Origin: a virus
Length of the DNA: 64,000 nucleotides
Direction: 5' to 3' (one strand)
Virus record (IMG/VR): IMGVR_UViG_3300047560_002412
Span: 32,001-96,000 of that record
Shown: in pieces, positions 13,371-47,495 of the stretch
Position numbering within the stretch: the stretch's first letter is position 1
How the letters are laid out: each line of letters begins with the position of its first letter
Notes under the pieces: model-generated
Seen by the model: only the letters and a program-made list of their open reading frames with translations
What the model was told of the DNA's origin: nothing
The model's database searches: none
Translations under genes and position numbers: made by a program

Positions 13371-13454
13371 GCCCGAGTGGAGAAATGGTATACTCAGGAG
13401 ACTTAAAATCTCCCGTCGAAAGGCATGCCGGTTCGAGTCCGGCCTCGGGTACCA
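13371..13454 (+). tRNA. tRNA-Leu(UAA)
   Basis: Cloverleaf, GGAGA-CTTAAAA-TCTCC, CCA. Confidence 0.93.
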
Positions 13455-13459
13455 AATTT

Positions 13460-13534
13460 GGTTTCAAGGTGTTCATGGACGCACACTGGCTTGTCACGCC
13501 AGAGGACGGGGATCGTTACCCCGTGAGACCGCCA
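13460..13534 (+). tRNA. tRNA-Asp(GUC)
   Basis: CTGGC-TTGTCAC-GCCAG, CCA; variant T-loop. Confidence 0.9.
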
Positions 13535-13608
13535 AGTTGTGTTGCAACTAATCTTAGGGATTGAATGTTAGCCTAAGTTAAAATAACAAAAATCATTCAC
13601 AGAATTAT

Positions 13609-13683
13609 TCCAGGGTAGCACAGCGGTAGTGCAGTTGGCTGTTAACCAATTGGTCATAGGTTCGATCCCTATCCCTGGAGCCA
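13609..13683 (+). tRNA. tRNA-Asn(GUU)
   Basis: GTTGG-CTGTTAA-CCAAT, CCA. Confidence 0.93.
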
Positions 13684-13693
13684 ATTATAAATT

Positions 13694-14257
13694 ATGGATA
13701 CATTTAGAACACTTCGCATATACGGATTTAAGCAACCAGGTACAGAATACATCGTTAAAGTAAATGGTGTTGTAACTGAATTAGGGTCTGATGATCTTTT
13801 TTCTTTTATTACTAATACTAAATTACATGGTAGCAATAACATTGTAATAAATGTATTAGCTGGAAAACTTACAATTACACATTGTTATGCCACATATCCT
13901 GCATTGTTTAATAACATTGAAGGAACAGCAACAATGGTGCAACCAATTGCAGATCCAATTGCTGTAATAGAAAATGGACAGATTTTTTCAGTACCATTTC
14001 CTATTGTAGTATCAGAAGGTGAAACATTTGATTATGAACATTTAATGTTTAATGGTCCTTCAAGATTTAAAATTGCCGTACAAGGATTAGGAATTAATCC
14101 AGGTATAAACGTGTTTATTGGCAATGCTATGAAAAATGAATTTACTCAAGGAATCACTGATATTCAAGTTGAATACGACTATGAACGATTCCCCAATGAA
14201 ATAAATTCTGAAGAAGATTTAAACAATTTAAAATTAAAAGTTTTAATGGCTCGGTAG
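13694..14257 (+). CDS. hypothetical beta-rich protein within tRNA array
   Basis: 187-aa AT-rich ORF; stop TAG lies inside tRNA-Trp. Confidence 0.65.
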   Translation: MDTFRTLRIYGFKQPGTEYIVKVNGVVTELGSDDLFSFITNTKLHGSNNIVINVLAGKLTITHCYATYPALFNNIEGTATMVQPIADPIAVIENGQIFSVPFPIVVSEGETFDYEHLMFNGPSRFKIAVQGLGINPGINVFIGNAMKNEFTQGITDIQVEYDYERFPNEINSEEDLNNLKLKVLMAR

Positions 14258-14324
14258 TTCAGTCTGGCAGAACGTTGGTCTCCAAAACCAAATGTCGGTG
14301 GTTCAAATCCATCCCGGGTCGCCA
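14248..14324 (+). tRNA. tRNA-Trp(CCA)
   Basis: TTGGT-CTCCAAA-ACCAA; D-stem GTTC/GAAC; CCA. Confidence 0.93.
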
Positions 14325-14330
14325 ATCAAT

Positions 14331-14406
14331 GCTCGGTTCGTCTATCGGTCTAGGACACCGCCCTTTCACGGCGGGAAGAGGGGTTCGATTCCCCTACCGA
14401 GTACCA
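14331..14406 (+). tRNA. tRNA-Glu(UUC)
   Basis: CCGCC-CTTTCAC-GGCGG, CCA. Confidence 0.93.
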
Positions 14407-14415
14407 AAGTTCTAT

Positions 14416-14490
14416 GCACGAGTGGCGGAACGGTGACGCAACGGATTGCAAATCCGCACCATGCAGGTTCGAATCCTGTCTCGTGCTCCA
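14416..14490 (+). tRNA. tRNA-Cys(GCA)
   Basis: CGGA-TTGCAAA-TCCG, U73, CCA. Confidence 0.92.
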
Positions 14491-14492
14491 AT

Positions 14493-14572
14493 GCCCCTGT
14501 GGCCAAATAGGTAAAGGCGGCTCTCTCAAAAGGAGTGACTATCTCTCGGTTCGAGTCCGAGCAGGGGTACCA
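14493..14572 (+). tRNA. tRNA-Leu(CAA), short variable arm
   Basis: GCTCT-CTCAAAA-GGAGT, CCA. Confidence 0.88.
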
Positions 14573-14673
14573 TCAAACGTAGATGTTAATGAACATGCCT
14601 TTTGGATATCTTTGACGAGAGTTCCAGGCATGCTGAAGATATGAATATTTCATATTGTATTTAAAAAAATTAT

Positions 14674-14763
14674 GGAAGTGTGGCAGAGTCCGGTTTATTG
14701 CACCTGTCTTGAAAACAGACGATCAGAAATGGTCCGTGAGTTCGAATCTCACCGCTTCCGCCA
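14674..14763 (+). tRNA. tRNA-Ser(UGA)
   Basis: CTGT-CTTGAAA-ACAG, long variable arm, GCCA. Confidence 0.93.
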
Positions 14764-14769
14764 AGTTAT

Positions 14770-14845
14770 GCAGTAATGGAGGGGTAGGCGCCCTGTGCGC
14801 CGCATTCTAGATTCCCGCAAAGGTTCGAGTCCTTTGGCTGCACCA
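14770..14845 (+). ncRNA. tRNA-like RNA without canonical D or anticodon arms
   Basis: T-arm AAAGG-TTCGAGT-CCTTT, short acceptor GCAGT/GCTGC, ACCA end. Confidence 0.6.
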
Positions 14846-14849
14846 ATTT

Positions 14850-14925
14850 GCCTCTCTAGCTCAATCGGGAGAGCACCGTCTTGATAAGGCGGGGGTACCT
14901 GGATCGAAACCAGGGAGAGGCACCA
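14850..14925 (+). tRNA. tRNA-Ile(GAU)
   Basis: CCGTC-TTGATAA-GGCGG, CCA. Confidence 0.92.
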
Positions 14926-14940
14926 AACAAGGAGAACATT

Positions 14941-15003
14941 ATGGCAATACTTGTTGTGTTAGTTATAATGTTCGTTTTGTATCAAGTGTTAAAAAAATAT
15001 TAA
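14941..15003 (+). CDS. 20-aa hydrophobic peptide
   Basis: AAGGAG RBS; MAILVVLVIMFVLYQVLKKY. Confidence 0.55.
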   Translation: MAILVVLVIMFVLYQVLKKY

Positions 15004-15013
15004 GGAGAATGAC

Positions 15014-15034
15014 ATGAAACGTGGTAAACGTTAG
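15014..15034 (+). CDS. minigene MKRGKR followed by hairpin
   Basis: TAAGGAG RBS; TAG then hairpin 15035-15070. Confidence 0.45.
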   Translation: MKRGKR

Positions 15035-15096
15035 TGTCACCCTAGATCCCGTATTGGTCTAGGGTTGGCACATTAAATCAATTTAATTACGACTAA

Positions 15097-15172
15097 CCCT
15101 ATCTAGCGTTAATGGTAGCGCACTTGACTCTTAATCAATGAGGTGTCAGTTCGAATCTGACGGTAGGGACCA
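15097..15172 (+). tRNA. tRNA-Lys(CUU)
   Basis: TTGA-CTCTTAA-TCAA, CCA. Confidence 0.9.
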
Positions 15173-15176
15173 ATAT

Positions 15177-15253
15177 GGGAGTATAGCTCAACTGGCTAGA
15201 GCAACCGGCTTTTAACCGGTAGGTTCAGGGTTCAAGTCCCTGTGCTCCTACCA
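15177..15253 (+). tRNA. tRNA-Lys(UUU)
   Basis: ACCGG-CTTTTAA-CCGGT, CCA. Confidence 0.93.
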
Positions 15254-15344
15254 TTACTATAAGAGAGAACATTACAATGTTGGGTTCGATTCCCCGCCAC
15301 TGATCAGGTTGGATGGTGTCCTAATGTTCTCCCTTATGGTAATG
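15252..15344 (+). ncRNA. 23-bp stem-closed RNA with internal T-loop hairpin
   Basis: 15252-15274 pairs with 15322-15344 (one mismatch); GGG-TTCGATT-CCC inside. Confidence 0.55.
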
Positions 15345-15412
15345 TAGCATAACGGTAGTGCAGCACCTTCATACGGTGTCCAGTGAAAGTTCGACTCTTT
15401 CCATTACCACCA
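15338..15412 (+). tRNA. tRNA(CAU), elongator Met or Ile2
   Basis: GCACC-TTCATAC-GGTGT, CCA. Confidence 0.9.
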
Positions 15413-15414
15413 AG

Positions 15415-15567
15415 TTTCTGAGATAGACGTAGAGTTTGAGTCCTGCCTAACCTAGCGCAGTTTTGGTCGGCTGCGTGACACCACAGACGGTTATTGGTGG
15501 TCCTAAGACTTGCTCTATCGAGACAATCCAGTGAGTCCTCCCAGGAGGATAGTTGGGCTCTCAGAAA
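15415..15567 (+). ncRNA. unnamed structured RNA
   Basis: Closing stem TTTCTGAGA/TCTCAGAAA with internal hairpins (CGCAG/CTGCG, ACCAC/GTGGT, TCCTCC/GGAGGA). Confidence 0.5.
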
Positions 15568-15577
15568 ACCTATATTT

Positions 15578-15652
15578 GGGGGCAGCAGAGGGCTGCGGGG
15601 AATCCTTGCAAGATTCTTGACTAGAACGGTTCGATACCGTCGGCCTCCACCA
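15578..15652 (+). tRNA. tRNA-Ala(UGC) with minimal D-loop
   Basis: GAATC-CTTGCAA-GATTC, G3:U70, D-arm GCAG-AGGG-CTGC, CCA. Confidence 0.8.
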
Positions 15653-15658
15653 AATTTC

Positions 15659-15733
15659 GCCCTTGTATCCTTAGTGGTAGAGGTCCTGTTTTGTAAGCAG
15701 GGTGTGGTGGTTCGATTCCATCCTGGGGCACCA
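15659..15733 (+). tRNA. tRNA-Thr(UGU)
   Basis: CCTGT-TTTGTAA-GCAGG, CCA. Confidence 0.9.
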
Positions 15734-15736
15734 AGT

Positions 15737-15936
15737 TTTGTTGTAGTGTTAGTAAGTGAAAGTCACTTTTGTTAGTAGCTGGCCAGCCAAAGCAAAAGTA
15801 AACAGAGGGGGGCGCAATACCCTAGCAAAAAATACGTAACTCTGGGCAAGTAACTGCAATAGCGTACCGAGTCCTTCCAGCTGGCTTGATTAGAGGTGAA
15901 TGGTTCCTATAACGATGGTGGAACTACTACAACAAA
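15737..15936 (+). ncRNA. unnamed structured RNA, possible pseudoknot
   Basis: Closing stem TTTGTTGTAGT/ACTACAACAAA; loop AGCTGG complementary to distal CCAGCT. Confidence 0.55.
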
Positions 15937-15947
15937 TTTATTTCTGT

Positions 15948-16021
15948 TGGCGTGTGGTGTAATGGTAACACAACGGACTTTGACTCCGTCGTTCCAGGTT
16001 CGAGCCCTGGCATGCCTGCCA
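15948..16021 (+). tRNA. tRNA-Gln(UUG)
   Basis: ACGGA-CTTTGAC-TCCGT, CCA. Confidence 0.92.
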
Positions 16022-16027
16022 AGTTTT

Positions 16028-16126
16028 GCCTCTGTAGCTTAATGGTAAAGAAGCGAGCTTATACCTCGCCAAAGCACAGGCCAGATAAGCCTGAGTGTGC
16101 AGGTTCGAGTCCTGCCAGAGGCACCA
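16028..16126 (+). tRNA. tRNA with UAU anticodon and very long variable arm
   Basis: GCGAG-CTTATAC-CTCGC; ~29-nt extra arm; 99 nt; ACCA. Confidence 0.8.
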
Positions 16127-16133
16127 TTATTAT

Positions 16134-16210
16134 CGGTCCTTAACTCAGTTGGACAGAGTGCCTGTCTTCGAAACAGGAAGTCGTGGGTTCGAATCCTGCA
16201 GGGCCGGCCA
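16134..16210 (+). tRNA. tRNA-Arg(UCG)
   Basis: CCTGT-CTTCGAA-ACAGG, CCA. Confidence 0.92.
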
Positions 16211-16231
16211 AATTTTTTTATGGAGATTGTT

Positions 16232-16438
16232 ATGAAAGCAACTATGCTAAAAAATCGTTTTAATAATGAGCATTTTGTCTGTGACGATATCCGTGTGACT
16301 GAAACAATCGAAGGTGTCGAGTACATTATTGTACATCGACCCAATGAGCATCGCCCGTTTAAAATGCGTCGCGATGCATTAGAGAAAATTAATATCCCGG
16401 TAGCTCATTTGGAACAGAGTATCACGCTACGAACGTGA
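16232..16438 (+). CDS. small phage protein overlapping tRNA-Arg(ACG)
   Basis: GGAG RBS; MKATMLKNRFNNEHFVCDD... Confidence 0.65.
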   Translation: MKATMLKNRFNNEHFVCDDIRVTETIEGVEYIIVHRPNEHRPFKMRRDALEKINIPVAHLEQSITLRT

Positions 16439-16471
16439 GGGTAGTAGGTTCGAATCCTACCCGGGATGCCA
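16394..16471 (+). tRNA. tRNA-Arg(ACG)
   Basis: TCACG-CTACGAA-CGTGA, CCA. Confidence 0.92.
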
Positions 16472-16482
16472 AACAAAACATT

Positions 16483-16556
16483 CTGGGTGTAGGATAATGG
16501 TAGTCGACGAAGCTTGGATCTTCGAGGCGCTGGTTCGATTCCAGCCACCCAGACCA
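16483..16556 (+). tRNA. tRNA-Pro(UGG), variant loop
   Basis: CGAAG-CTTGGAT-CTTCG, CCA. Confidence 0.88.
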
Positions 16557-16562
16557 GATTAC

Positions 16563-16637
16563 ATAGCGTTCGACTTTTGGTGAGGTCAGTAGGCTTTCAA
16601 CCTACGTAGGCGGGTTCGATCCCCGTACGCTATACCA
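16563..16637 (+). tRNA. tRNA-Glu(UUC), second copy
   Basis: GTAGG-CTTTCAA-CCTAC, CCA. Confidence 0.88.
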
Positions 16638-16642
16638 ACTAT

Positions 16643-16718
16643 GGTGAGGATAGTGTACCGGTGCGCACACCTGTCTGTGAAACAGGTAGATAGGGTTCAA
16701 CTCCCGTCCATCACCCCA
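16643..16718 (+). tRNA. tRNA-His(GUG)
   Basis: G-1, CCTGT-CTGTGAA-ACAGG, C73, CCA. Confidence 0.9.
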
Positions 16719-16719
16719 A

Positions 16720-16794
16720 GGATCTTTAGCTCAGTGGTAGAGTAGCAGCTCGACACGCTGTTGGTCGTAGGTTCAAGTCCTGCAAGATCCACCA
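16720..16794 (+). tRNA. tRNA-Val(GAC)
   Basis: GCAGC-TCGACAC-GCTGT (C33), CCA. Confidence 0.88.
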
Positions 16795-16799
16795 AATAT

Positions 16800-16875
16800 G
16801 CCGCTTTAGCTGATGTGGTCATAGCACCGGTTTGAAGCACCGAGGAATGAGGTTCGATCCCTCAAGGCGGCACCA
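16800..16875 (+). tRNA. tRNA-Phe(GAA)
   Basis: CGGT-TTGAAGC-ACCG, CCA. Confidence 0.88.
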
Positions 16876-16879
16876 GTTT

Positions 16880-16979
16880 AAGCATCAACCGAAAGGTCGG
16901 CGATAAGAACAAGGTGTGAACATAGTTGCATCTTTGTTGGTCGGTAGATTGGAACGACTCACTCTTTTTACTGATGCTT
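16880..16979 (+). ncRNA. unnamed structured RNA
   Basis: Closing stem AAGCATCA/TGATGCTT; ACC-GAAA-GGT tetraloop hairpin. Confidence 0.45.
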
Positions 16980-17003
16980 TTTTAGTTTGTTAACCAAAAT
17001 ATG

Positions 17004-17033
17004 TTGACAAAGCATACAGATAGAATATATAAT
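17004..17033 (+). promoter_or_regulatory. sigma70 promoter for tRNA-Leu/giant ncRNA unit
   Basis: TTGACA-18-TATAAT. Confidence 0.75.
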
Positions 17034-17089
17034 AGTCACATATGCTTGTTAATAGCATTTAGTTCATTAAAAATTAAATTTAAGATTTT

Positions 17090-17173
17090 GCCCTGGTGGT
17101 GGAATGGTAGACACGCTGGTCTTAGAAGCCAGTGTCGCGAGGCGTGAGAGTTCGAGTCTCTCCTGGGGCACCA
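17090..17173 (+). tRNA. tRNA-Leu(UAG)
   Basis: CTGGT-CTTAGAA-GCCAG, variable arm, CCA. Confidence 0.93.
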
Positions 17174-17338
17174 TTAAAAAATAGCATTAGCGGGTATCGC
17201 TTGTGGACGCACAGGCTCATGAGGAATAGGGCCATCTTACTCCTCTGAAAAAACCGTGAACAATGGCTTATGAGGAGAATCGAACTCCACTCAGAAATAC
17301 GTTTCATCCCATAGGGTGTAATGTTATTTTTTAATGGT
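17170..17338 (+). ncRNA. unnamed RNA closed by a 20-bp stem
   Basis: 17170-17189 pairs with 17319-17338. Confidence 0.55.
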
Positions 17339-17347
17339 AAAAATTTA

Positions 17348-18232
17348 AGGGCAGTTTATTGTCCTGTAGGCGGCTTGCCGTCTACAAAGAATAAGTGAGG
17401 TGACTCACCCAAAGCTAGAATGCCTACATACTAGCGCCAGCAATGGTTCATGTAAACAAGCCTGCTCACTACCGCGAGGTAGCGTTCACTGATAAGACCG
17501 GTGGATGTAACAGCAAAGCTGATGTAGTGGAAAGAACGTTTGCTTACAAGCCCGTAAGGGGAACTTGAGTGAATGGAAAGTAACAGGTGGTGCTGACTTC
17601 ACTACAAAACCAATCAGTCAACTGGTATGAGAAAGGGTAGTGTATTGGTCCGAAGGGTCGCTCCTAAGGGCTCGTATGCAATGTTAATGGAAGGTGGAAC
17701 ACGTTGCGAAACGTTGTTACATCGGTCGTGAAACATCACTGAGTAGCTCGCGAGGCAAAAGGTATGTGGTGAGTTGTATTTTGTATTCCAAAAGAGTATG
17801 AAGCAACTGAGGCAGCTCATCGCGGTAGGTTCAATGTAGATCAATGGTAGATCGTCTGTCTTTTAAACAGAATGCTGTGGGTTCAAATCCCATCATTAAC
17901 AAAAATGCAAAGACTGCCTCGGTTATGTGTGAAAAGTATCTAACGCTCGGGGCGCAAGCCAACTGAGTCTGATAAAGCTCGCAAGGTGATATCAGTTTAT
18001 ACTGGAAGTTTCGTAGTTCGCAAGACTTAATGGCTCGCAAGGTCAACGGAATAGATGGTGTAGAGTAGCATATAACGACAAGCCTAATGCCTGGCTTTAA
18101 AAACGGCGATACTGCAAGTAGACTAGGTTACATGGTAACATGAACTTAGTGGATGTCTAGAGAACGTATACTCGCAAGGTGTACGGTAATGCTAGAGGTA
18201 CTTGTGGGAGAGATGTAATCTCAGTCCTCCAC
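17348..18232 (+). ncRNA. giant structured ncRNA, GOLLD-like
   Basis: ~885 nt without credible sense ORF, many GNRA-capped hairpins (GCGA, GTAA, GCAA), inside a phage tRNA array; ends approximate. Confidence 0.75.
17829..17901 (+). tRNA. tRNA-Lys(UUU)-like cloverleaf embedded in the giant ncRNA, no CCA
   Basis: D-arm GATC/GATC, TCTGT-CTTTTAA-ACAGA, T-arm GTGGG-TTCAAAT-CCCAT. Confidence 0.75.
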
Positions 18233-18320
18233 TATTCTAAAACACATTAACTTAAAACATAGTTTCGAGTATGGGAAATGCCGCCCAATGAGATGATGGT
18301 ATAGTGTGTTTCAGAATAGT
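18231..18320 (+). ncRNA. stem-closed small RNA
   Basis: ACTATTCT/AGAATAGT and AAACACATTA/TAGTGTGTTT stems. Confidence 0.45.
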
Positions 18321-18324
18321 TTTT

Positions 18325-18400
18325 GCATCCTTAGCTCAGCGGTAGCAGCGGCGTCTTTACACGGCGTAGGTCGTAGGTTCAATCCCTACAGGATGCACCA
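18325..18400 (+). tRNA. tRNA-Val(UAC)
   Basis: GCGTC-TTTACAC-GGCGT, CCA. Confidence 0.92.
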
Positions 18401-18405
18401 ATTAT

Positions 18406-18500
18406 GGAGTGTTGGCCGAGTTGGTCGAAGGCACCTTCCTGCTAAGAAGGCATTCGGGCAAAAACCTGGATCATTGGTTCGAATCCAATACACTCCGCCA
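18406..18500 (+). tRNA. tRNA-Ser(GCU)
   Basis: CCTTC-CTGCTAA-GAAGG, long arm, GCCA. Confidence 0.93.
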
Positions 18501-18523
18501 AATTTATTAAAAAGGAAAAAATA

Positions 18524-18712
18524 ATGCTAAAACCAGGTCCGAGTTACAAAATGAGTAAGCAGGGTAAAAGAACATTAGCGCAATATCTTGATTCACATAA
18601 GCGTGGCGAAGTTAAGCGTAGTATTATCCAAGCAGAACTTGCTGCATTGATTCAACCAAAACGTGAAAGAAATCGCAGAGAAGGACAAAACGACAATGGT
18701 AGCAAGGAATGA
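18524..18712 (+). CDS. small basic phage protein
   Basis: AAGGA RBS; MLKPGPSYKMSKQGKRTLA. Confidence 0.7.
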   Translation: MLKPGPSYKMSKQGKRTLAQYLDSHKRGEVKRSIIQAELAALIQPKRERNRREGQNDNGSKE

Positions 18713-18980
18713 TATTACAGGTGATGCTATCCAAACTAGGACATCATCTAAAGCATATAACGATAATTACGACGCAATTTTTAGGAAAAATAAAGTGACT
18801 CCAAAAGTAGAAGATATGAAGAAAGGAACTTGTGGTTGCGGACGTTCGCCCACAGGTGATTGCATTGGATGGCATGGATTGTCAGAAGATGCATATAAAA
18901 AAGCACTTGAAGATTATCGTATTGCTGAAGTATCAAAGTTAGTTGCTGAAGAAACACTTCAAGCAACAGACAATAAGTAA
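18696..18980 (+). CDS. small protein with CDGSH-like Fe-S/Zn motif
   Basis: ARNDITGD N-terminal module; CGCGRSPTGDCIGWH. Confidence 0.7.
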   Translation: MVARNDITGDAIQTRTSSKAYNDNYDAIFRKNKVTPKVEDMKKGTCGCGRSPTGDCIGWHGLSEDAYKKALEDYRIAEVSKLVAEETLQATDNK

Positions 18981-18985
18981 TATTT

Positions 18986-19061
18986 GGGGGTTTAGCTCAT
19001 CTGGGAGAGCATTAGCTTTGCAAGCTAAGGGTGATCGGTTCGAGTCCGATAACCTCCACCA
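18986..19061 (+). tRNA. tRNA-Ala(UGC)
   Basis: TTAGC-TTTGCAA-GCTAA, G3:U70, CCA. Confidence 0.93.
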
Positions 19062-19079
19062 AGAGATATATAGTAGTAC

Positions 19080-19155
<76 letters not shown>

Positions 19156-19160
19156 ATTAT

Positions 19161-19236
19161 GGCCAGGTGGCAGAGCGACTTATGCGCTAGATTGCAAATC
19201 TGGATTAGGTAGGTGGAAATCCTACCCTGGCCTCCA
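19161..19236 (+). tRNA. tRNA-Cys(GCA), second copy with variant T-loop
   Basis: CTAGA-TTGCAAA-TCTGG, TCCA. Confidence 0.85.
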
Positions 19237-19245
19237 GTTTTACCA

Positions 19246-19281
19246 AAAAGACTTGACCTTAGGTCTTTTTTGTTTTATACT
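19246..19281 (+). terminator. terminator hairpin overlapping a sigma70 promoter
   Basis: AAAAGAC..GTCTTTTTT; TTGACC(19253)-17-TATACT. Confidence 0.65.
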
Positions 19282-19287
19282 AGTTTT

Positions 19288-19551
19288 GTTGTGTAGCAAT
19301 ACACAACCGGCGAGGTAGAAGGTAGATGAGGATAGACATTTCATTGGCTTACAACGCTAATGAATCTTATCAATGGCAAAACGTCTTGAAAACGTTTCGT
19401 GCTTGAGTGAACCGATATCCACATACCTGTCATTTGCTGATCGGAAATATTCAGGCCTCTGTAGCCTGTTTATTGAATGTTGTCAAGGAGATGCTTTATA
19501 GCTATCCGTTTGCATATTGTCCGGTCTATTACTTGACCTTTTACTGACCCG
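19288..19551 (+). ncRNA. structured RNA or long 5' leader upstream of coiled-coil gene
   Basis: GCAA hairpin, long-range GTAGAAGGT/ACCTTTTAC and ATAGAC/GTCTAT stems enclosing several hairpins. Confidence 0.55.
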
Positions 19552-19578
19552 TTATTTTAAATTAAAAGAGAGACACAA

Positions 19579-20151
19579 ATGAACATTACACTACGCAAAG
19601 CAAACACAATTCAGAACAGCATCAATGATGCAATCAAGGGTATTAAGATTGAGACATCTATTAATATCAACGAATTTCAGGATGTTGAAGTAGAAATCAA
19701 AAAAGCCAATGAAGGATTGTTTTTTGCTGACACTCGTCGTCAAAAGTTAACTTTGGCTCTCTACAACATTCGAGGTCTTGTTGCACAGGCAAACGCAAGT
19801 GCCGGCATTGACCTGGCGCTAACAAAAGCTGCCTTCATTGACAAAAGAATTGCACAGCTAGAAACATTAGCTCAACTTGAAGAACATACTTCCGTTGAAG
19901 TTTTAAAAGGCAAACTTCGTAAAATTGCCGAAGACAAGGGCGAAAGCCGTAGCCGTATTTACGGTTACAATGATTATGTTACTACTACCGTAGTATCTAA
20001 AGAACAGGTTAATCAGGCTAAGAGTGAAATTCAAACTCTTAAAAAACAAAAACAGAAACTCAATGATGAGGTTCTTGAATTAAACATCAAAACAGAAATT
20101 CCTTTAACTGACGATGTTGTTGAAACATTAAAGGCAGAAGGTATTATCTAA
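19579..20151 (+). CDS. helical coiled-coil protein, reminiscent of DIP1984-like family
   Basis: ITLRKA..IQ N-terminus and KQKLNDEVLELNIKTEI C-terminus. Confidence 0.7.
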   Translation: MNITLRKANTIQNSINDAIKGIKIETSININEFQDVEVEIKKANEGLFFADTRRQKLTLALYNIRGLVAQANASAGIDLALTKAAFIDKRIAQLETLAQLEEHTSVEVLKGKLRKIAEDKGESRSRIYGYNDYVTTTVVSKEQVNQAKSEIQTLKKQKQKLNDEVLELNIKTEIPLTDDVVETLKAEGII

Positions 20152-20158
20152 GACCTAT

Positions 20159-20233
20159 CGCGGGTTGGAGAAGTGGTATCTCGGGAGTCTCATAAGCTCC
20201 AGATCCCTGGTTCAATTCCAGGACCCGCAACCA
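20159..20233 (+). tRNA. tRNA-fMet(CAU)-type
   Basis: C1:A72 mismatch, CTCATAA loop, CCA. Confidence 0.88.
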
Positions 20234-20238
20234 ATTTT

Positions 20239-20315
20239 CGGTGTGTAGCTCAGCCTGGTAGAGCTCCTGGTTTGGGACCAGGTGGTCGCATGTTCGAATC
20301 GTGTCACACCGACCA
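20239..20315 (+). tRNA. tRNA-Pro(UGG)
   Basis: CCTGG-TTTGGGA-CCAGG, CCA. Confidence 0.93.
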
Positions 20316-20347
20316 AGTACGATAAGATACGTTCAATAAATAGAAAT

Positions 20348-21505
20348 ATGAATATTGGCGGACTTGATCAATTTAAAGATAATTCTATTAACGGTATTAT
20401 CGACGAAATAAAAAAGATAAATGGTTTATTATTAGATGCAACAATAAGCCTTTGTCAACATTGTCATTACCATGTTCCAGCATATAGATACGAATTAAAC
20501 AATAAAGTCTATATTTGCAAACATTGTATAACACATGGTTTTAGTCATCATCTAATTGAAAATGATGCTGAATTTTATCACGGGTTGATAAAGAACATGG
20601 ATACCATGTGGAATTTTGATAACTATATTCTTACTGAAGTTACAGATAGATGTAATTTAGAATGTCCGCATTGTTATCATTTACCTGATAATAAAATTAA
20701 AGATGTTCCGTTAGAAGATCTTATAACTCGATTTAAAGAATATCCAGACAGCATTTATCATATAATCTTGGCTGGTGCCGAATCGAGTTTAAGGAAAGAC
20801 ATAAAAGATTTAGTTATCGAAGTTAGTAAATTAGGAAAACTTCCTCAAATTTTAACTAATGGTGTTAAATTTTCCGATATTGATTTTGTAAAAAATCTTG
20901 CTTCAGCAAATGTTGATATGACGGTTACCATAGGTTTAAATCATCCTAGCTATATTGGAAATTCTAAGGTACGTGAAAAACAAATTCAAGGAATCCTAAA
21001 TGTAAACGAATACATCAATGGATTATCGTATGTTGGTTACACTATGGTTGGAATGGATGAATTAGATTTTATTCTAACTGAAATTACTAGCACTAATTGG
21101 TGTCAACATTCAAGGATTAGAGCAGGTAGTGAAATAGGTAGAAATGCCACAGACGAACAAATTTTTGTCAGTGACATTTTTAAAGCAACAAAATTGTGGG
21201 CAGAAAGAAACGGAAAATCTTTTGAAGTTGTAGATGCTGATAATAACATATATCATGTTGTTGTAAAAATAGACAACAAGTATATAAGAATTATTCAATG
21301 GTGTGACGAAACAAATATTGATTTAGAAGAATTAAGAACTGGTCCTTGGTGTGATTTTGTCTACGACGGAATAACAAATTTTTTACATCAAGTTATAAGA
21401 AGAGATGTTTGGAAAAATAAAGGTTTAATTTTACCGGATACTCCTCCAATAAGATACCAGGTTGGGCATCATAAAGATATAGATCCAGTTTTTCTCAAGC
21501 ACTAA
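20348..21505 (+). CDS. radical SAM enzyme with N-terminal Cys/His motif
   Basis: CNLECPHC; SLCQHC...KHC..HG; LTNG. Confidence 0.88.
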   Translation: MNIGGLDQFKDNSINGIIDEIKKINGLLLDATISLCQHCHYHVPAYRYELNNKVYICKHCITHGFSHHLIENDAEFYHGLIKNMDTMWNFDNYILTEVTDRCNLECPHCYHLPDNKIKDVPLEDLITRFKEYPDSIYHIILAGAESSLRKDIKDLVIEVSKLGKLPQILTNGVKFSDIDFVKNLASANVDMTVTIGLNHPSYIGNSKVREKQIQGILNVNEYINGLSYVGYTMVGMDELDFILTEITSTNWCQHSRIRAGSEIGRNATDEQIFVSDIFKATKLWAERNGKSFEVVDADNNIYHVVVKIDNKYIRIIQWCDETNIDLEELRTGPWCDFVYDGITNFLHQVIRRDVWKNKGLILPDTPPIRYQVGHHKDIDPVFLKH

Positions 21506-21532
21506 AGAAGTTGCTGTAAATATAGTTTTAAT

Positions 21533-21606
21533 GCGGGGTTCGTATAGTGGTAATACCTCAGCCTTCCAAGCTGATGCGGAGAGTTCGATTCTCTTACCCC
21601 GCTCCA
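21533..21606 (+). tRNA. tRNA-Gly(UCC)
   Basis: TCAGC-CTTCCAA-GCTGA, TCCA. Confidence 0.93.
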
Positions 21607-21610
21607 TAAT

Positions 21611-22183
21611 ATGCAAATAGTAGACCAAAACGATCTAGTTAAAAAATTTAATTTTAGTTCTATAATAAATCAGAAGGATAATGATACCGCCATAGGCATT
21701 ATTACTGATATTATCGCTTCTGGTAATTACTTTACTAATTCACCAAAGTATCAAACTAAAGAAAACATATTTTCACGTCCAGAAGAAGTATGGTTAAAAT
21801 ACCGTATGAGCTTCTTAATGAGCGTGTTTATGTATTTAGGTCGAGAAGTTAGAGTCGGTAACATGATGGCATGGAGTTTTATGACAAATCTTGAGGGTGC
21901 CGAAGATCGCGAAAAACTTTGGCACCATCATTGGCATCCAACTAAACCCGATGCCAAAATGTTAAGCGGAATATTTTATCTACATATTCCCGATGATGTC
22001 AAGGACCGAGATACATGCGGTACTGAAATGGCTCCGAGTGGAATTCATAGTGATGAAAAATATTTTATCACTCCAACAGAGTTTAGTTGGATAGTATATC
22101 CTAGTCAAGTATATCATAGGCCAGGAATCGTACAAAGTAATCAATATAGATATATTCTAGCAGTAGACGTAGAATATTATTAA
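21611..22183 (+). CDS. 2OG-Fe(II) oxygenase-like protein
   Basis: WHHH, SGIFYL, GTE, YPS..YH, R..LA. Confidence 0.75.
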   Translation: MQIVDQNDLVKKFNFSSIINQKDNDTAIGIITDIIASGNYFTNSPKYQTKENIFSRPEEVWLKYRMSFLMSVFMYLGREVRVGNMMAWSFMTNLEGAEDREKLWHHHWHPTKPDAKMLSGIFYLHIPDDVKDRDTCGTEMAPSGIHSDEKYFITPTEFSWIVYPSQVYHRPGIVQSNQYRYILAVDVEYY

Positions 22184-22184
22184 T

Positions 22185-22260
<76 letters not shown>

Positions 22261-22264
22261 AATT

Positions 22265-22339
22265 CTGGCTATAGTATAATGGAGAATACAACTCTCTTCT
22301 AAAGAGTGAATGTGGGTTCGATTCCTGCTAGCCGGGCCA
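22265..22339 (+). tRNA. tRNA-Arg(UCU)
   Basis: ACTCT-CTTCTAA-AGAGT, GCCA. Confidence 0.9.
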
Positions 22340-22343
22340 AATC

Positions 22344-22417
22344 GCTCCTATAGTTAAATGGCAGAACACATCCTTGGTAAGGATGCGATACAAGTTCGAT
22401 TCTTGTTAGGAGCACCA
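22344..22417 (+). tRNA. tRNA-Thr(GGU)
   Basis: CATCC-TTGGTAA-GGATG, CCA. Confidence 0.92.
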
Positions 22418-22453: not shown

Positions 22454-22678
22454 ATGTATAAAGTAGAATGGAAGGACACAGCGGGTAGAGGCTGTGAGGA
22501 AGCAGTAAAAGATCTATCGGAAGCATTGGCTTTCGCAACAGAATTAGGAATACCAGTTACCATAAATGGTGGCGGTATAGTGTTAGTAGGAACATTTGGT
22601 TCTGCTGGCATTGAAAATGGACTATTACCAAACGGAGAAAAGTACAGCTGGTACAAACGCAGATATGTCAAAGAATGA
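22454..22678 (+). CDS. conserved small phage protein
   Basis: VG.FG...I.NG.LPNGE.Y.W.KRR. Confidence 0.7.
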   Translation: MYKVEWKDTAGRGCEEAVKDLSEALAFATELGIPVTINGGGIVLVGTFGSAGIENGLLPNGEKYSWYKRRYVKE

Positions 22679-22883
22679 TTTAATTGAATTAACGGGCAAA
22701 ATTGAAGAAGTTCTTCCCGGAAGTATGTTTAGGGTAAAACTTGATAATATGCCAAATATTATTACCTGCTATACCGGCGGAAAACTTAAACAGCACAAGA
22801 TTAAAATTATTCTAGGCGACAAGGTTAAAGTTGAAGTCAGTGCATATGACCTAACCAAAGGTCGTGTAACTTATCGTTTATAA
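22665..22883 (+). CDS. infA: translation initiation factor IF-1
   Basis: MSKNDLIELTGKIEEVLP...FRVKLDN...I.IILGDKV.VEVS.YDLTKGRVTYR. Confidence 0.95.
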   Translation: MSKNDLIELTGKIEEVLPGSMFRVKLDNMPNIITCYTGGKLKQHKIKIILGDKVKVEVSAYDLTKGRVTYRL

Positions 22884-22893
22884 GGAGAATATT

Positions 22894-23607
22894 ATGAAAC
22901 GAGTTATTGAAATCCGTGCCGCAGAAGGTGGCGAAGACAGCAAGTTATTTGTCAGTGATCTTGCGTCTGCATATTCCAAATTAGGAAACAAACTGGGTTG
23001 AACTACCCGCCTGATAGATGTTCGTCCTGGCGAGTGTAGTTTACTAGTTGAGGGCAAAGATCTATCCGGCTTATACAATGAGCCCGGAGGTCATCGAATC
23101 CAGCGAGTTCCGCCAACGGAACGCAAGGGCCGAGTTCATACCAGCACCGTTACCGTCGCGGTCATAGACAGCGAGGATGCCTGGACAGCACCAACTATTG
23201 CTCAATCTGATTTAAAAATTGATTGGTATAGTGGTACTGGTGCTGGCGGACAATATCGGAACAAGCATCAAAATAGCTGCCGTATCACACACCTTCCTAC
23301 AGGTATCACAGCCAAAGCAGAATGTCGTAGCCGCCAAAATAGTTTGGATCAAGCCATGACTGCTATTCAAAATCAACTTGACAAAACCGCTAAAAGATCA
23401 TATAATAATAACATAGCGAACGATAGAAAGCGTCAAGTAGGATCAGGGATGCGAGGAGACAAAATTCGCACTTACAGATTCCAAGACGATTCTGTACAAG
23501 ATCACGTAACGGGCAAACGAGCAACCTGCTCACAGATTTTGAAAGGCAATTTAGATCTGTTATGGCAAAAGAAATTCCAGAACATCGAGACCAACTTGGC
23601 CGAGTAA
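22894..23607 (+). CDS. class-I peptide chain release factor homologue (RF1/PrfH-like, no domain 1) with in-frame TGA at codon 36
   Basis: TAAGGAG RBS; EIRAAEGGEDS, GGHRIQRVPPTERKGRVHTSTVTVAV, GAGGQ, RITHLPTGI, RGDKIRTY in one frame across TGA 22999-23001. Confidence 0.9.
23378..23406 (+). promoter_or_regulatory. sigma70 promoter internal to release-factor gene
   Basis: TTGACA-17-TATAAT. Confidence 0.75.
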
Positions 23608-23816
23608 TCAATATGGGCGACTGCGTTGCCTATCCACAGAGCAATAGTTTGGTTATAGGTGTTGTTCGTAAGATTAATCCAAAGATGATCGGTGTTCGCA
23701 GAATTGGTAAAAATGGTTGGGGCTCAGAGAAAAACAAATATCCTGTGGATTGCGTTAAACTCGACGGTCCCGAAGTTACTATGTTCATTATCAAGAATGC
23801 AGGTGAAGTAAAATGA
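23562..23816 (+). CDS. small SH3/KOW-like phage protein
   Basis: DQLGRVI..GDCVAY. Confidence 0.7.
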   Translation: MAKEIPEHRDQLGRVINMGDCVAYPQSNSLVIGVVRKINPKMIGVRRIGKNGWGSEKNKYPVDCVKLDGPEVTMFIIKNAGEVK

Positions 23817-23916
23817 GCGACGATAAAGTATTCTTTGGAACCATCCTAGCGATGTTTGCCTTAATGACTGGCAATCCGTTCATTGCTCTTTGTATTTTCA
23901 TTCTAGCGATAATGTA

Positions 23917-26593: not shown

Positions 26594-28108
26594 ATGCCTT
26601 TACAGATTAGAAGAGGGAATACCGCACAACGCCAGAATATTGTTCCCCAGGCTGGAGAGCTAGTTTACGATACCGATTTAGGTACAATTTATGTCGGAGA
26701 CGGTGAAACAGCTGGTGGTATTGCATCAGTTAATATCACACCTCGCGACGTAAGAGACCAAGCCGCAGGAATTTTTACAAGTGGGTCACATACAGGAATC
26801 TCGTTTACATATAACGGATCAGAAGGAACAATTGATGCAGTCGTAGACCCAGACTTATCTAATTATCAAGGTGTAATTAGAGCATCAGCATTCAATGGAA
26901 GTTTAGTTGCTGACGATAGCTCTTTACTAGTTGATGCACTACACGGATATATCAATTTAAATGGAACCGTTAAAAGTAACGTTGTTCCAGATTCCGATTC
27001 AGCATATGATATCGGTACATCAGGTTTAAGATTTAAAGACCTATATCTTTCAGGGTCTAGTTTACATTTAGGTAGTGCTACAATTACATCTGTTGGAAGT
27101 GCCGTTAATCTTCCAGCTGGATCAACCGTCGGCGGAGTTTCTATAGGATCGGGCGGAACAGGTGACGGTGTTGTATCTGGAATGAATTACAATATTAATA
27201 TTGTAGGTGATGATAGCACTTTAATTGTTAATGCAACAACAAAATCTGTATCAGCAGCAGGTGGTTTTACAGGAAATTTAACTGGTAATGTAACTGGAGA
27301 TCATACTGGATATGTTTACGGTGACGTTGAAGGAAATTTAACCGGTAATGTAACAGGTAATGTTCTTGGTGATACAACAGGCGACCATAAAGGAAACATT
27401 TTAGCTAATGATCTTACATCGGCTTATGATGCAGATACAAAAGCCTTTACAGGAAGTTTAACTGGTAATGTAACAGGTAATATCAACGGTGATGTAAGAA
27501 CAGCTACTATTAATGTAGCTGGAGCATATCTGACAATTGAAAATTCTACTAATACCTCTATTTCAACAATAAGAAGAAATATTCCAGAACCAGGAAATCA
27601 TACAGATGTTAACGCTATTACTGATGGTGTATATTCAACGGGTACGTCTTATTATATTTCTAGAGGAACACTAGGAACTCCAGCAGCAGTACACACCGCT
27701 GACAGACTTGTAGCAGACATTTATTTTGCACACGACGGCACAACGTATGTTCCGTCTTGTATTATGGGTATGGGTGTTGATCCATTTGCTTCTGTCACAA
27801 CAGGTGCTGTACCGGGTGGTATTAGCTTTACAGCTATTAGTGACGGAAACATTACACATTTAACCAAGACATTCTTAATGGATTCTAGAGGTTATATTGG
27901 AATCAATAACGGATTTAATCAACCGGGGGCAACATTAGATATTAATGGATTTGCTAAACTTGCTGTGCTGACCGCTGCACCAGCATCGCCTGCAGAAGGC
28001 ATGATTGCTATTGCAGACGGAACTACATGGGATCCTATGTCAACAGGTAAGAAAGTTGTGGTTGCATATCTAGGTGGTGGTTGGAGACAAATGGCTACTG
28101 CGCCTTAA
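26594..28108 (+). CDS. virion structural/tail-fibre-like protein (Mtd N-terminal-type motif)
   Basis: LQIRRGN.......P..GELVYDTD...YVGDG; TGN(L/V)TG repeats; TAAATA late motif upstream. Confidence 0.8.
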   Translation: MPLQIRRGNTAQRQNIVPQAGELVYDTDLGTIYVGDGETAGGIASVNITPRDVRDQAAGIFTSGSHTGISFTYNGSEGTIDAVVDPDLSNYQGVIRASAFNGSLVADDSSLLVDALHGYINLNGTVKSNVVPDSDSAYDIGTSGLRFKDLYLSGSSLHLGSATITSVGSAVNLPAGSTVGGVSIGSGGTGDGVVSGMNYNINIVGDDSTLIVNATTKSVSAAGGFTGNLTGNVTGDHTGYVYGDVEGNLTGNVTGNVLGDTTGDHKGNILANDLTSAYDADTKAFTGSLTGNVTGNINGDVRTATINVAGAYLTIENSTNTSISTIRRNIPEPGNHTDVNAITDGVYSTGTSYYISRGTLGTPAAVHTADRLVADIYFAHDGTTYVPSCIMGMGVDPFASVTTGAVPGGISFTAISDGNITHLTKTFLMDSRGYIGINNGFNQPGATLDINGFAKLAVLTAAPASPAEGMIAIADGTTWDPMSTGKKVVVAYLGGGWRQMATAP

Positions 28109-33512: not shown

Positions 33513-35536
33513 TAGTGTTCCTTTTTATTACCTTGAATTATTTTCTTTGTTTCAAACGTTCTATTTTTAATATATGTACCATCAGCTACCCGTATAGTAT
33601 CCATATTTCGAATCATATTAATATATTGATCGGTCCATTTAATTTTTGTATTTGGAATTGTTTTTAAAAGAATACTTCCTTCGATAGGTGGATCTTCTTT
33701 AGATTTTCTTTCCTCATATAAATCCCAACGATATTTTGTTTCCCACTCGACTTCCTCTGCTGGGTCTTCTCTAAAAGTACTATTCTCAACATAAGTTAAT
33801 AAATCGTCTAAGGGTTCATCTATATGTTCTGCTAATTGTTCTCTCAGACTTTTAAATATTTCTTTTCTGGATGAAACCCAACAATATATCAAACCTTCAT
33901 TAATAGAAAAATCACCTCTCACAGGACCAACATTAAACTCTCGCCAAGGTAAATTTTCTCGAGTACCATTAATAATGCTCTCCATATAACCATTTACTGG
34001 AGTTTTAAATTTTTCACAATTCCACATTGCTGTGTGAATTATTTTATATGAATATCGAGGTAGTATACCTTTCTGATAATTTAAATAATCAACTAACGGT
34101 TTAACAAGAAGATTATTAATTAATGGAATTTTCATATCGTTCATTAAGAACATTTCTTTCCACTCTTCTTCTGTGTACGAATAACACGAAACCGGTATGT
34201 ACATAGCATATTGTTTTTTAGGAAATTGTTTTTTAAAATTTACTATGTACTTTGAATCACTATATTGCTTAAGAAGATCCATAGTTTCCATATTAATACC
34301 CGCAAGTTTCATTTGAAATTTTTCAAGATATGCAGGGTCTGCTATAGGAGCATCTGGAAGAACATATAATGGTACATGGTGTGACACGGTTTTAATTTTA
34401 TTAAACACCGCATCTTCAATTTCCATTTCTTCATAAAATACAGGAATGGTGCTTCCTGGTAAACCAATAATTAATTCAATTAATGTTTCAGCATCGTACT
34501 TTTCAATAAAATATTTTGCCAACTCAACATTTTCTTCTGCAGGAATATCAAAACGTTCTACATTTTTTAATACTTGAGGATCTATACTCTGTAAACTTAC
34601 TTGATAAAATTGTAATACTCCGGATTCAAATAATGGTTCTAATACCGCTTTTTTCTTTTCGACACTAGATTTAGCCAAGCCCATGATCCCAACAAATTTA
34701 ACATGTTCTTTCATTGCTGCTATCATGTGTGCTATCTCAACATCTTGTTTTAATATTCCATAATTTGCATCTGTTATGAATACTGATCCTACGCCTAAAT
34801 CTTTAAAATATGAAAAGTCATTTCTAATATTTTCTAAATCTTTGACAATAACTTTTGTTGATGTTCCTCCACCCCATTCACAATACGAACAACTATAAGG
34901 ACATCCTCTATTTGTTTCATACAATGTAACTAAAACTCTATCATGTGATTTAGCATATTCTGACCATGCGTAACAAATGTCTAAATTCTTTTCAATCAAT
35001 CCCCACGGATAGCTAAAATCTTTTTTATTTCCTAACGGACCTTTTCCTTTTCTATGGTAACTATTCCTAACGTTATTCCAATTTAAATCACCTTCAATTA
35101 CACTATCTAACATATCAGTAATAAAAAATTCACCATATTCTACTGCTTGACAGGTTGCATCAAAATACGGATGATCCTTAAACCAAAAAATTGGATCTGT
35201 ATAAGTAGTTCCTTGATTTGGGCCGCCTAGAACAATCAACGCATTTGGATGTGCTTCTCTAACGGCAAGAGCAATTATTTTAATAATATCCCAACTCCAC
35301 ATATAACTGCTAAACATGTATACGTCTGCGTTGGCATTAATGGCTTCTTCAACTACATCATCTAACGTTTGACCAGTGTAATCCATCACGGGAGGAATCC
35401 ATTCCCACTTATCAGAATGTTTTCCGTGGTCTTCGTAATATCTTTTAAATTCTAACCAAACAAGAGGTAAGAAAAGATAGATGTGCTGCTGAACATCCCA
35501 TCTAAAGAACCATATTTTTTTCTTAGACTCTGTCAT
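33512..35536 (-). CDS. B12-binding-domain radical SAM enzyme
   Basis: SSYMWS, IVLGGP, YGE, ETNRGCPYSCSYCEW, DANYG, ELIIGLPG. Confidence 0.9.
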   Translation of the reverse strand: MTESKKKIWFFRWDVQQHIYLFLPLVWLEFKRYYEDHGKHSDKWEWIPPVMDYTGQTLDDVVEEAINANADVYMFSSYMWSWDIIKIIALAVREAHPNALIVLGGPNQGTTYTDPIFWFKDHPYFDATCQAVEYGEFFITDMLDSVIEGDLNWNNVRNSYHRKGKGPLGNKKDFSYPWGLIEKNLDICYAWSEYAKSHDRVLVTLYETNRGCPYSCSYCEWGGGTSTKVIVKDLENIRNDFSYFKDLGVGSVFITDANYGILKQDVEIAHMIAAMKEHVKFVGIMGLAKSSVEKKKAVLEPLFESGVLQFYQVSLQSIDPQVLKNVERFDIPAEENVELAKYFIEKYDAETLIELIIGLPGSTIPVFYEEMEIEDAVFNKIKTVSHHVPLYVLPDAPIADPAYLEKFQMKLAGINMETMDLLKQYSDSKYIVNFKKQFPKKQYAMYIPVSCYSYTEEEWKEMFLMNDMKIPLINNLLVKPLVDYLNYQKGILPRYSYKIIHTAMWNCEKFKTPVNGYMESIINGTRENLPWREFNVGPVRGDFSINEGLIYCWVSSRKEIFKSLREQLAEHIDEPLDDLLTYVENSTFREDPAEEVEWETKYRWDLYEERKSKEDPPIEGSILLKTIPNTKIKWTDQYINMIRNMDTIRVADGTYIKNRTFETKKIIQGNKKEH

Positions 35537-47432: not shown

Positions 47433-47495
47433 AAACTGAACATATTTAAGCCACAATCAGTTGTTCTAGAGGGATTGCGAGTATATAATAAGTAT

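Follow-up and report, generated by a model that had tools for sequence, protein, structure and literature searches.

How can a phage make a release factor from a gene that is interrupted by a stop codon at its 36th codon? The question is raised by a 64,000-nucleotide stretch of viral DNA (positions 32,001 to 96,000 of the IMG/VR record IMGVR_UViG_3300047560_002412, hereafter the window), and by the gene at 22894-23607 on its forward strand. A single frame runs from the ATG at 22894 through an in-frame TGA at 22999-23001 (codon 36, ..NKLG*TTRL..) to a TAA at 23605-23607, and the RVPPTE, GGQ, and IRTY motifs of a release factor all lie downstream of the TGA in that same frame. The gene is open only when the TGA is read through, and with TGA read as Trp its product has 237 residues. 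A preliminary description, made from the DNA letters, had proposed that programmed Trp readthrough produces the factor only when termination by host release factor 2 (RF2) is weak. Our analysis of this locus, which belongs to a large, tRNA-rich, freshwater phage with the standard code, makes it fairly probable that the synthesis of a phage RF1-type factor is gated by programmed readthrough of this RF2-specific UGA.

A Shine-Dalgarno element, AAGGAG, is located at 22882-22887 (+) and overlaps the TAA stop (22881-22883) of the IF-1 homologue upstream; aaggag or aagga also precedes the ATG in most relatives. The strong ribosome-binding site with its ATG and the single frame ending at 23607 are seen just as the preliminary description gave them, and the open reading frame (ORF) list of the window indeed misses most of the gene, showing just an 87-aa tail at 23344-23607. 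Codons 1-35 (22894-22998, +) encode the start of RF1 domain 2 including the EGGED helix tip, according to profiles, structure alignment, and the ratio of nonsynonymous to synonymous substitution rates (dN/dS). Codons 37-237 with the TAA (23002-23607, +) encode the rest of RF1 domains 2-4, with the PPT tripeptide at 23110-23118 and GGQ at 23245-23253. This downstream part is open for 201 codons, and no in-frame ATG, GTG, or TTG occurs for 114 codons past the TGA. Termination followed by reinitiation was rejected for this reason, and because no overlapping start is conserved.

A predicted RF1-type release factor without domain 1

The product obtained with TGA read as Trp matches the Pfam families PCRF (E value 1.5e-21) and RF-1 (E value 3e-18), and scores 197-200 bits against the NCBIfam prfA models (TIGR00019/NF001859) over model positions 107-340 of 347. 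The full-length equivalog cut-offs of these models, 400-423 bits, are not reached because domain 1 is missing. The absence of domain 1, which the preliminary description had recognized, is evident from the start of the prfA match at position 107 and from the solved RF1 chains, which align with the product from their residue 87 or 112 onward. The prfB profile scores the product at 118 bits, well below the prfA models.

The comparison with PrfH in the preliminary description, and with it the identity of a ribosome-rescue factor, fails on score. The PrfH profile TIGR03072 gives 37.3 bits against a cut-off of 166.65 and covers residues 100-196 only, and a PrfH-type factor was rejected in favor of an RF1 derivative. 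The rescue factors PrfH and ArfB, which are not known to have a PxT codon-reading domain, resemble the window protein in the absence of domain 1 and the presence of the GGQ domain. Unlike them, the window protein keeps the RF1 codon-reading domain with PxT.

All of the RF1-type decoding elements are found in the alignment, namely the Pro and Thr of PxT (here PPT), the Gln before it, and the HTS after it, together with GGQ. We take these residues to confer specificity for UAA and UAG. RVPPTE (residues 71-76) and GGQ (residues 118-120) are both invariant in 21 aligned family members, and the middle residue of the tripeptide is Pro, in place of the Ala of E. coli RF1 (PAT) and the Val of T. maritima RF1 (PVT). 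An AlphaFold (AF2) model built on these 21 family members has a mean predicted local distance difference test score of 82.8 and superposes on ribosome-bound RF1 with template-modelling scores of 0.77-0.79. Residue 36 aligns with the Trp of T. maritima RF1 (kGW) and of E. coli RF1 (rrW), which agrees with the earlier placement of an RF1 Trp at about the position of the TGA. The RF1 homology is unbroken across the stop and continuous over codons 37-46, and translational bypass from the GGY codon to a downstream Gly codon was rejected on this ground. Judged by its sequence, the product is a predicted domain-1-less RF1-type class-I release factor with intact stop-codon-reading motifs, and homology makes Trp the residue expected at position 36.

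Conservation of the stop codon and selection on both sides

The in-frame TGA (22999-23001, +), which occupies the position of the conserved Trp of RF1, is present in all 181 related loci that cover codon 36, and in the window; these represent 157 distinct sequences, and none has TGG. The first scan of viral contigs gave 33 loci of 59-89% identity, with TGA in 32 of the 32 sequences covering the codon (the window counted). A metagenome scan, in which 11 of the 112 loci examined end before codon 36, brought the count to 101 of 101 loci and 86 distinct sequences, and the TGA was again present in 80 of 80 loci of a second viral scan, which contributed 71 new distinct sequences. Viral scans with the domain-1-less representatives P0128 and P0132 returned only short GGQ-domain matches. 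The Gly codon before the TGA varies among GGC, GGT, and GGA, and the pairwise synonymous difference is about 0.7, near saturation. The conservation of the TGA is far beyond chance. The preliminary description had expected a conserved TGA alternating with TGG; the conservation is found and the alternation is not.

Purifying selection of similar strength is observed on the two sides of the stop, with dN/dS values of 0.093 for codons 1-35 and 0.109 for codons 37-92 (83 sequences, 3403 pairs). Furthermore, contigs of two sequencing runs, one the probable source run and the other an independent DNA run, cover 22999-23001, and no other letter occurs among the matches listed. Taken together, the 157 distinct TGA sequences, the dN/dS of about 0.1, and the contigs of other runs exclude a sequencing error, a private mutation, and a pseudogene with relaxed selection downstream, which had been named beforehand as grounds for giving up the proposal. 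An artefact, a pseudogene, or a genome-wide TGA = Trp code might be suspected from the way gene callers split the gene or call W at position 36. We consider this explanation already refuted, given in addition that TGA ends at least a third of ordinary ORFs and that no other gene is split. The same behavior of gene callers is visible in protein databases: at least 120 protein matches listed include 47 N-terminally truncated proteins of 181-203 aa and 73 proteins of 222-237 aa with W at 36, mostly from contigs shorter than 3 kb, and the recoding of this abundant gene is therefore invisible there.

Standard genetic code and tRNA complement

The contig that carries the window is 128.7 kb long (CheckV completeness 35%), and 84% of it is covered by ORFs of at least 100 aa under code 11. 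The stops of these 158 ORFs are TAA in 91, TGA in 53, and TAG in 14. Among the stops with open frame on both sides, that of the release-factor gene alone is followed by a long stretch lacking a start. The complete relative G001 (364,247 bp, with terminal repeats) gives the same picture, with an ORF coverage of 85% under code 11, stops of TAA 226, TGA 195, and TAG 38 in 459 ORFs of at least 100 aa, and the release-factor gene as its sole convincing split gene. Other in-frame TAG and TGA candidates in the two genomes were dropped, as they translate to low-complexity antisense-like sequence. TGA thus ends a third or more of ordinary ORFs, which is not the pattern of a TGA-recoded (code 4) phage, and the earlier statement that there is no global recoding is upheld. 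Recoding that is specific to one gene in a standard-code genome is strongly supported.

ARAGORN identified 35 tRNA genes and a transfer-messenger RNA (tmRNA) in the own contig. For the complete relatives, it called 46 tRNAs in the tRNA-bearing regions of G001 and 49 in those of G002, and in the stretches of the 735-kb phage genome LR756501 that hold Rfam tRNA hits it called 59, against 66 Rfam matches. No tRNA with a UCA anticodon (opal suppressor) is among the ARAGORN calls for any of these sequences. Genes for SelB, for TrpRS, and for a second RF-1-domain protein are absent from the own contig, G001, and G002. By contrast, each of the three tRNA sets contains tRNA-Trp(CCA) and an isolated tRNA(CUA), and the LR756501 stretches contain two of each. 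In the window, tRNA-Trp(CCA) is encoded at 14248-14324 (+, ARAGORN) and could serve as a near-cognate reader of UGA. It has A24 in a U11-A24 pair, and A24 is also found in both tRNA-Trp copies of G002. G24A is the Hirsh UGA-suppressor change of E. coli tRNA-Trp, which enables UGA reading (PMC13092985). As a trait of the whole family, A24 was rejected, since G24 is found in G001 and beside the frameshift-type gene of a Thiobacillus scaffold described below. No 4-bp anticodon stem, the UGA-reading form, was found in the tRNA-Trp genes examined, all of which have stems of 5 bp.

The position of the gene raises the possibility that it acts as a timer. The UGA would then be read by the phage tRNA-Trp(CCA), the factor would appear only after the upstream tRNA array had been expressed, and the input would be the level of phage tRNA and not host RF2. 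The gene begins 477 nt past a same-strand array of 34 tRNAs (13371-22417, +, ARAGORN) that includes the tRNA-Trp and has no UCA anticodon; relatives likewise keep the gene in or next to tRNA arrays, and A24 in the window and in G002 would fit such a reader. However, the TGA is still present in G001, whose single tRNA-Trp has G24, the tRNA-Trp beside the frameshift-type gene also has G24, and the anticodon stems do not have the 4-bp form. We consider the timer unlikely, and it is compatible with RF2 competition.

Several further RNA genes of these phages were observed. The tRNA(CUA), of amber-suppressor type (labeled Pyl by ARAGORN), is located at G000:C1:7387-7461 of the own genome, outside the window and away from the tRNA array. 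It is kept with an identical acceptor stem in the two complete relatives (L088:509-583; L091:492-566, minus strand), and LR756501 carries its two copies on L368. No convincing gene with an in-frame TAG was found in 128 kb or 364 kb. An RF1-type factor should oppose the amber-type tRNA(CUA) of the same phage. The tmRNA, with the tag peptide ANDTRFALAA, lies at G000:C1:10638-11029, also outside the window (ARAGORN). Odd tRNA-like calls by ARAGORN comprise one with a four-base anticodon (tttc) in G001 (L087, complement 5533-5607), and one (ttac) and two (ta) in LR756501 (L366, L367).

A conserved hairpin downstream of the stop codon

The preliminary description had drawn a stem-loop directly behind the TGA, with an outer helix ACTAC (23002-06)/GTAGT (23036-40) and an inner helix CGCC/GGCG. 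These pairings do exist in the window itself. When 22 relatives are compared, only 63.6% of cells are paired in the outer helix and the inner helix, with 96.6% paired, hardly varies, and this hairpin was rejected as the conserved element. The expectation of a covarying hairpin near the stop nevertheless holds, in a longer form different from the one drawn. RNAalifold with 22 sequences identified a 62-nt hairpin within the coding sequence at 23009-23070 (+), which begins 7 nt past the stop and consists of the arms 23009-23027/23052-23070 and an inner helix 23030-31/23047-48. The minimum-energy fold of 22990-23070 has an energy of -32.1 kcal/mol (z-score -4.39). Paired cells make up 88.6% of this hairpin in the 22 sequences and 85.3% in a set of 79, slid partners giving 24-50%, and 10 and 13 pairs, respectively, are changed on both sides. 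In some lineages the basal stem is rebuilt with other letters and other amino acids, for example GTGTAATAAA with TTTATTACAC.

The structure is also visible in single sequences and in codon usage. The mean energy of 66-nt windows, taken over 148 distinct sequences, drops sharply to a minimum at nucleotides 115-180 of the coding sequence (-24.1 kcal/mol, compared with about -9 to -19 kcal/mol elsewhere), and this is the most stable 66-nt window in 87 of them. The case for the structure rests on the pair counts with slid controls and on these per-sequence energies. Relative synonymous-codon entropy is 0.36 in the signal codons (37-45 and 55-59) and 0.81 in the other codons (Mann-Whitney p = 4e-8, signal codons against all others); the loop codons 46-54 have a value of 0.81. 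The 7-nt spacer ACTACCC between stop and hairpin (23002-23008, +) likewise shows suppressed synonymous variation, codon 37 being ACT in 79 of 85 Thr codons and codon 38 ACC in 91 of 98. The TGA is followed by A in 122 of the 157 distinct sequences, by G in 25, by C in 10, and never by T; a U at this +4 position has been reported to reduce readthrough in bacteria (PMC5289835).

A UGA closely trailed by a conserved hairpin is also the layout of a bacterial selenocysteine insertion sequence (SECIS), and the stop might in that case be read as selenocysteine. The site is Trp in RF1s, however, and no Cys is found there in domain-1-less relatives with a sense codon or in the aligned solved RF1s. The conserved portion of the hairpin is the basal stem and the apical portion varies. 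In a SelB-binding SECIS the pattern is the reverse, with the apical part conserved. Together with the lack of SelB in the three phage genomes, the lack of a tRNA-Sec among the ARAGORN calls for the own contig and for the tRNA regions of G001 and G002, and the sister lineages that frameshift at the same site, these observations make selenocysteine insertion highly improbable.

Readthrough and frameshift types in sister lineages

Related genes outside the family were identified in several large genomes. On a 245-kb contig of a Rhodospirillales metagenome-assembled genome (MAG), a gene of 50% identity has its TGA at this same codon, followed by a strong fold (z-score -3.8). The published huge-phage genomes LR756501 (735 kb) and LR745206 (634 kb) encode domain-1-less RF1-like genes with two in-frame TGAs each, both at positions where relatives have Trp, and the 49-kb surroundings of these genes look like standard code. 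In a scaffold of the cultured bacterium Thiobacillus denitrificans DSM 12475 (L299, 40.9 kb) and in a Hydrogenophilales MAG, the gene is instead split over two frames. The frame junction reads CGGGGUCAU CUU UGA C or CGGGGGCAC CUU UGA C, which is a prfB-like cassette. L299 carries 20 tRNA genes in 4.6 kb beside the frameshift-type gene and may be a phage or prophage; the tRNA-Trp just upstream of the gene has a mismatch inside its anticodon stem.

The C-terminal part of the frameshift-type gene, used as a query, recovered 18 viral loci, which with the two above make 20. A +1 shift is needed in 15 of these (CTT TGA C/G in 14, CTT TAG C in one), and the remaining five have a zero-frame TGA. A GGAGGGG or CGGGGG element often precedes the slip site, which again resembles prfB. 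The CUU of most frameshift-type genes coincides with the TGA codon of the window, and a second recoding site, ten codons downstream at codon 46/47, occurs in both readthrough and frameshift versions. The window itself reads GGT TGA ACT and continues in frame 0, without the slip feature of the prfB type. In a tree of the C-terminal part (quick search, 55 rows, SH-aLRT support, midpoint root), the family of the window forms one clade with a support of 99, and another phage clade mixes readthrough and frameshift types.

These sister lineages bear on two other explanations. The UGA could be a fixed attenuator that senses nothing and sets a low, constant yield of a factor harmful in excess. A strong Shine-Dalgarno element followed by an early stop would yield a small fixed fraction, and overexpression of RF1 modestly lowers the fitness of B. 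subtilis (PMC12421855). A weak start site would do the same and evolve more easily, yet the stop, its context, and the hairpin are kept over saturated divergence, and the sisters swap in the prfB cassette, a known RF2-responsive device. We therefore regard a fixed attenuator as rather unlikely. In true autoregulation, the phage factor would read UGA despite its PxT and end its own synthesis, as RF2 does in prfB. The near-exclusive use of UGA by both recoding devices of the gene family and the Pro in the middle of the tripeptide, in place of the Ala or Val of the aligned RF1s, would fit this idea. The residues aligned with the RF1 decoding elements are all RF1-type, however, and the prfA profile is favored over that of prfB, so autoregulation through UGA is improbable.

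A proposed model for gating by RF2-specific UGA

The explanation we favor, readthrough of the UGA in competition with RF2, would work as follows. Ribosomes would initiate at the strong Shine-Dalgarno element and ATG, and most of them would stop at the UGA and release a 35-residue peptide. Some would decode the UGA, most likely as Trp via near-cognate tRNA-Trp(CCA) supplied by host or phage, and would then complete the 237-residue factor. Readthrough would be favored by the non-U base after the stop, the constrained 7-nt spacer, and the conserved 62-nt hairpin, which would be placed at the mRNA entrance of a ribosome that has the UGA in its A site. UGA is read by RF2 alone, and weak RF2 action relative to tRNA-Trp would therefore raise the yield of the phage factor. 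The circuit would be a cross-regulatory version of that of prfB.

The earlier proposal of programmed Trp readthrough stands firmly in its gene-specific recoding, with Trp expected by homology. From the features of the locus we infer that readthrough does occur, that Trp is inserted, that the hairpin stimulates the event, and that the level of RF2 is the variable sensed. The proposal that RF2 termination is the input gains independent support from the sister lineages, because they carry a prfB-type cassette, an SD-like element with CUU UGA C, at the same site; the sensing itself would follow from this arrangement.

Several observations weigh against this explanation. An RF1-type factor is unable to take over from RF2 at UGA, which gives the sensing of RF2 no obvious advantage. 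The viral contig L375 has CTT TAG C, so the gate is not always specific for RF2; a UAG gate would make that copy autoregulatory, as an RF1-type factor should read UAG. RNAalifold on 79 sequences, the most diverged included, gave no consensus structure, the hairpin is partly broken in some of the most diverged members, and it is weak in the AT-rich huge-phage homologues (z-scores of -0.1 to -2.0). To our knowledge, there is no established bacterial case of hairpin-stimulated readthrough. A24 is absent from the tRNA-Trp of G001 and of the Thiobacillus scaffold. Contigs from RNA libraries cover parts of the gene, one of them starting 2 nt before the TGA, and are uninformative on transcription, strand, and readthrough.

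Neighboring genes and other features of the window

The gene immediately upstream (22596-22883, +) encodes an IF-1 homologue (Pfam eIF-1a, E value 7.7e-18; phrog_30201), in agreement with the earlier statement that the release-factor gene adjoins IF-1, and its true start probably lies inside this ORF. In L031 (3673 onward) the order is reversed, with IF-1 downstream of the release-factor gene. An 84-aa ORF at 23562-23816 (phrog_2251, no assigned function) overlaps the end of the release-factor gene by 46 nt and is read in another frame. A blastn search of window positions 22500-23900 against phage records gave no match.

Elsewhere in the 64-kb window, nine radical SAM genes form an unusual density (20282-21502, 33515-35536, 36241-37629, 38352-39245, 39277-40203, 40210-41571, 44771-45859, 46455-47456, and 62240-63847), of which one encodes a SPASM domain and another an HMPTM-type zinc ribbon. 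The gene at 293-2368 encodes a 692-aa protein that combines a CHASE2 sensor domain with an adenylate/guanylate cyclase domain. The 504-aa protein at 26594-28105 has an N-terminal major tropism determinant domain (Mtd_N) and may be a candidate target of a diversity-generating retroelement.

Comparison with known recoding systems and implications

The closest known system is the +1 frameshift of prfB, which is also a class-I release-factor gene with an early in-frame UGA competing with RF2 termination. In the window gene the frame is unchanged, there is no CUU U slip site or required SD-like element, and the stimulator is a 3' hairpin. Its product is RF1-type and should not read UGA, so control would be exerted by another factor, unlike in prfB. 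Prince et al. report no programmed recoding in prfA among more than 12,000 bacterial genomes (PMC12421855). The idea that zero-frame readthrough of an early stop controls a bacterial-type release-factor gene predates the sequencing of prfB. Atkins et al. (2016) recount the hypothesis that RF2 is controlled via an early in-frame UGA, slowly decoded at low RF2 and read by a near-cognate tRNA, and state that no RF2 gene has zero-frame readthrough control and that an RF1 counterpart is unknown (PMC5009743). The window gene matches this layout, but in a phage RF1-type gene and with UGA, not the factor's own UAG.

Recoding in viral termination factors has a precedent in Mimivirus and Megavirus, where a class-I release-factor gene passes internal stops by readthrough and frameshift, read as autoregulatory by Jeudy et al. 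(PMC3521657). Like the window gene, it is a virus-encoded termination factor that passes internal stops by recoding. It is of the eukaryotic/archaeal eRF1 type, belongs to viruses of amoebae, and combines both events in one gene, whereas the window gene is bacterial RF1-type, belongs to a phage, and has one UGA. The gene content of large phages includes release factors, tRNAs, tmRNA, and initiation factors (Al-Shayeb et al., PMC7162821), and RF1 occurs in a 'code change module' of the TGA-recoded Jade phages (Borges et al., preprint). In the passages cited here, both reports describe release-factor genes in the standard code and mention no internal stop. Unlike the Jade phages, the window phage is not recoded. 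Full-text literature searches, in which supplements were not opened, did not turn up any account of a phage RF1 gene with an internal stop.

In phage Q-beta, the UGA at the natural stop of the coat protein is read by tRNA-Trp to give the minor structural protein A1. This resembles the process proposed for the window gene in that a phage uses leaky decoding of UGA by tRNA-Trp in a standard-code host. The window stop differs in being internal, in occupying the position of a conserved Trp, and in gating a whole functional protein.

In a broader and more tentative form, several large-phage lineages may gate an RF1-type factor on the failure of host RF2 through interchangeable devices at the same two codon positions, either zero-frame UGA readthrough with a 3' hairpin or a prfB-like +1 frameshift. 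Together with tRNA(CUA), such a factor could readjust how often UAG and UAA are terminated or read through in an infected cell with the code unchanged, a possibility to which we give limited credence. If readthrough is real, this gene family would be the first natural case of the predicted control of a bacterial-type release-factor gene, found in phages. The interchange of readthrough and +1 frameshift at one codon of one gene offers a natural experiment on the interconversion of these mechanisms, and the arrangement suggests that phages may monitor the termination capacity of their hosts.

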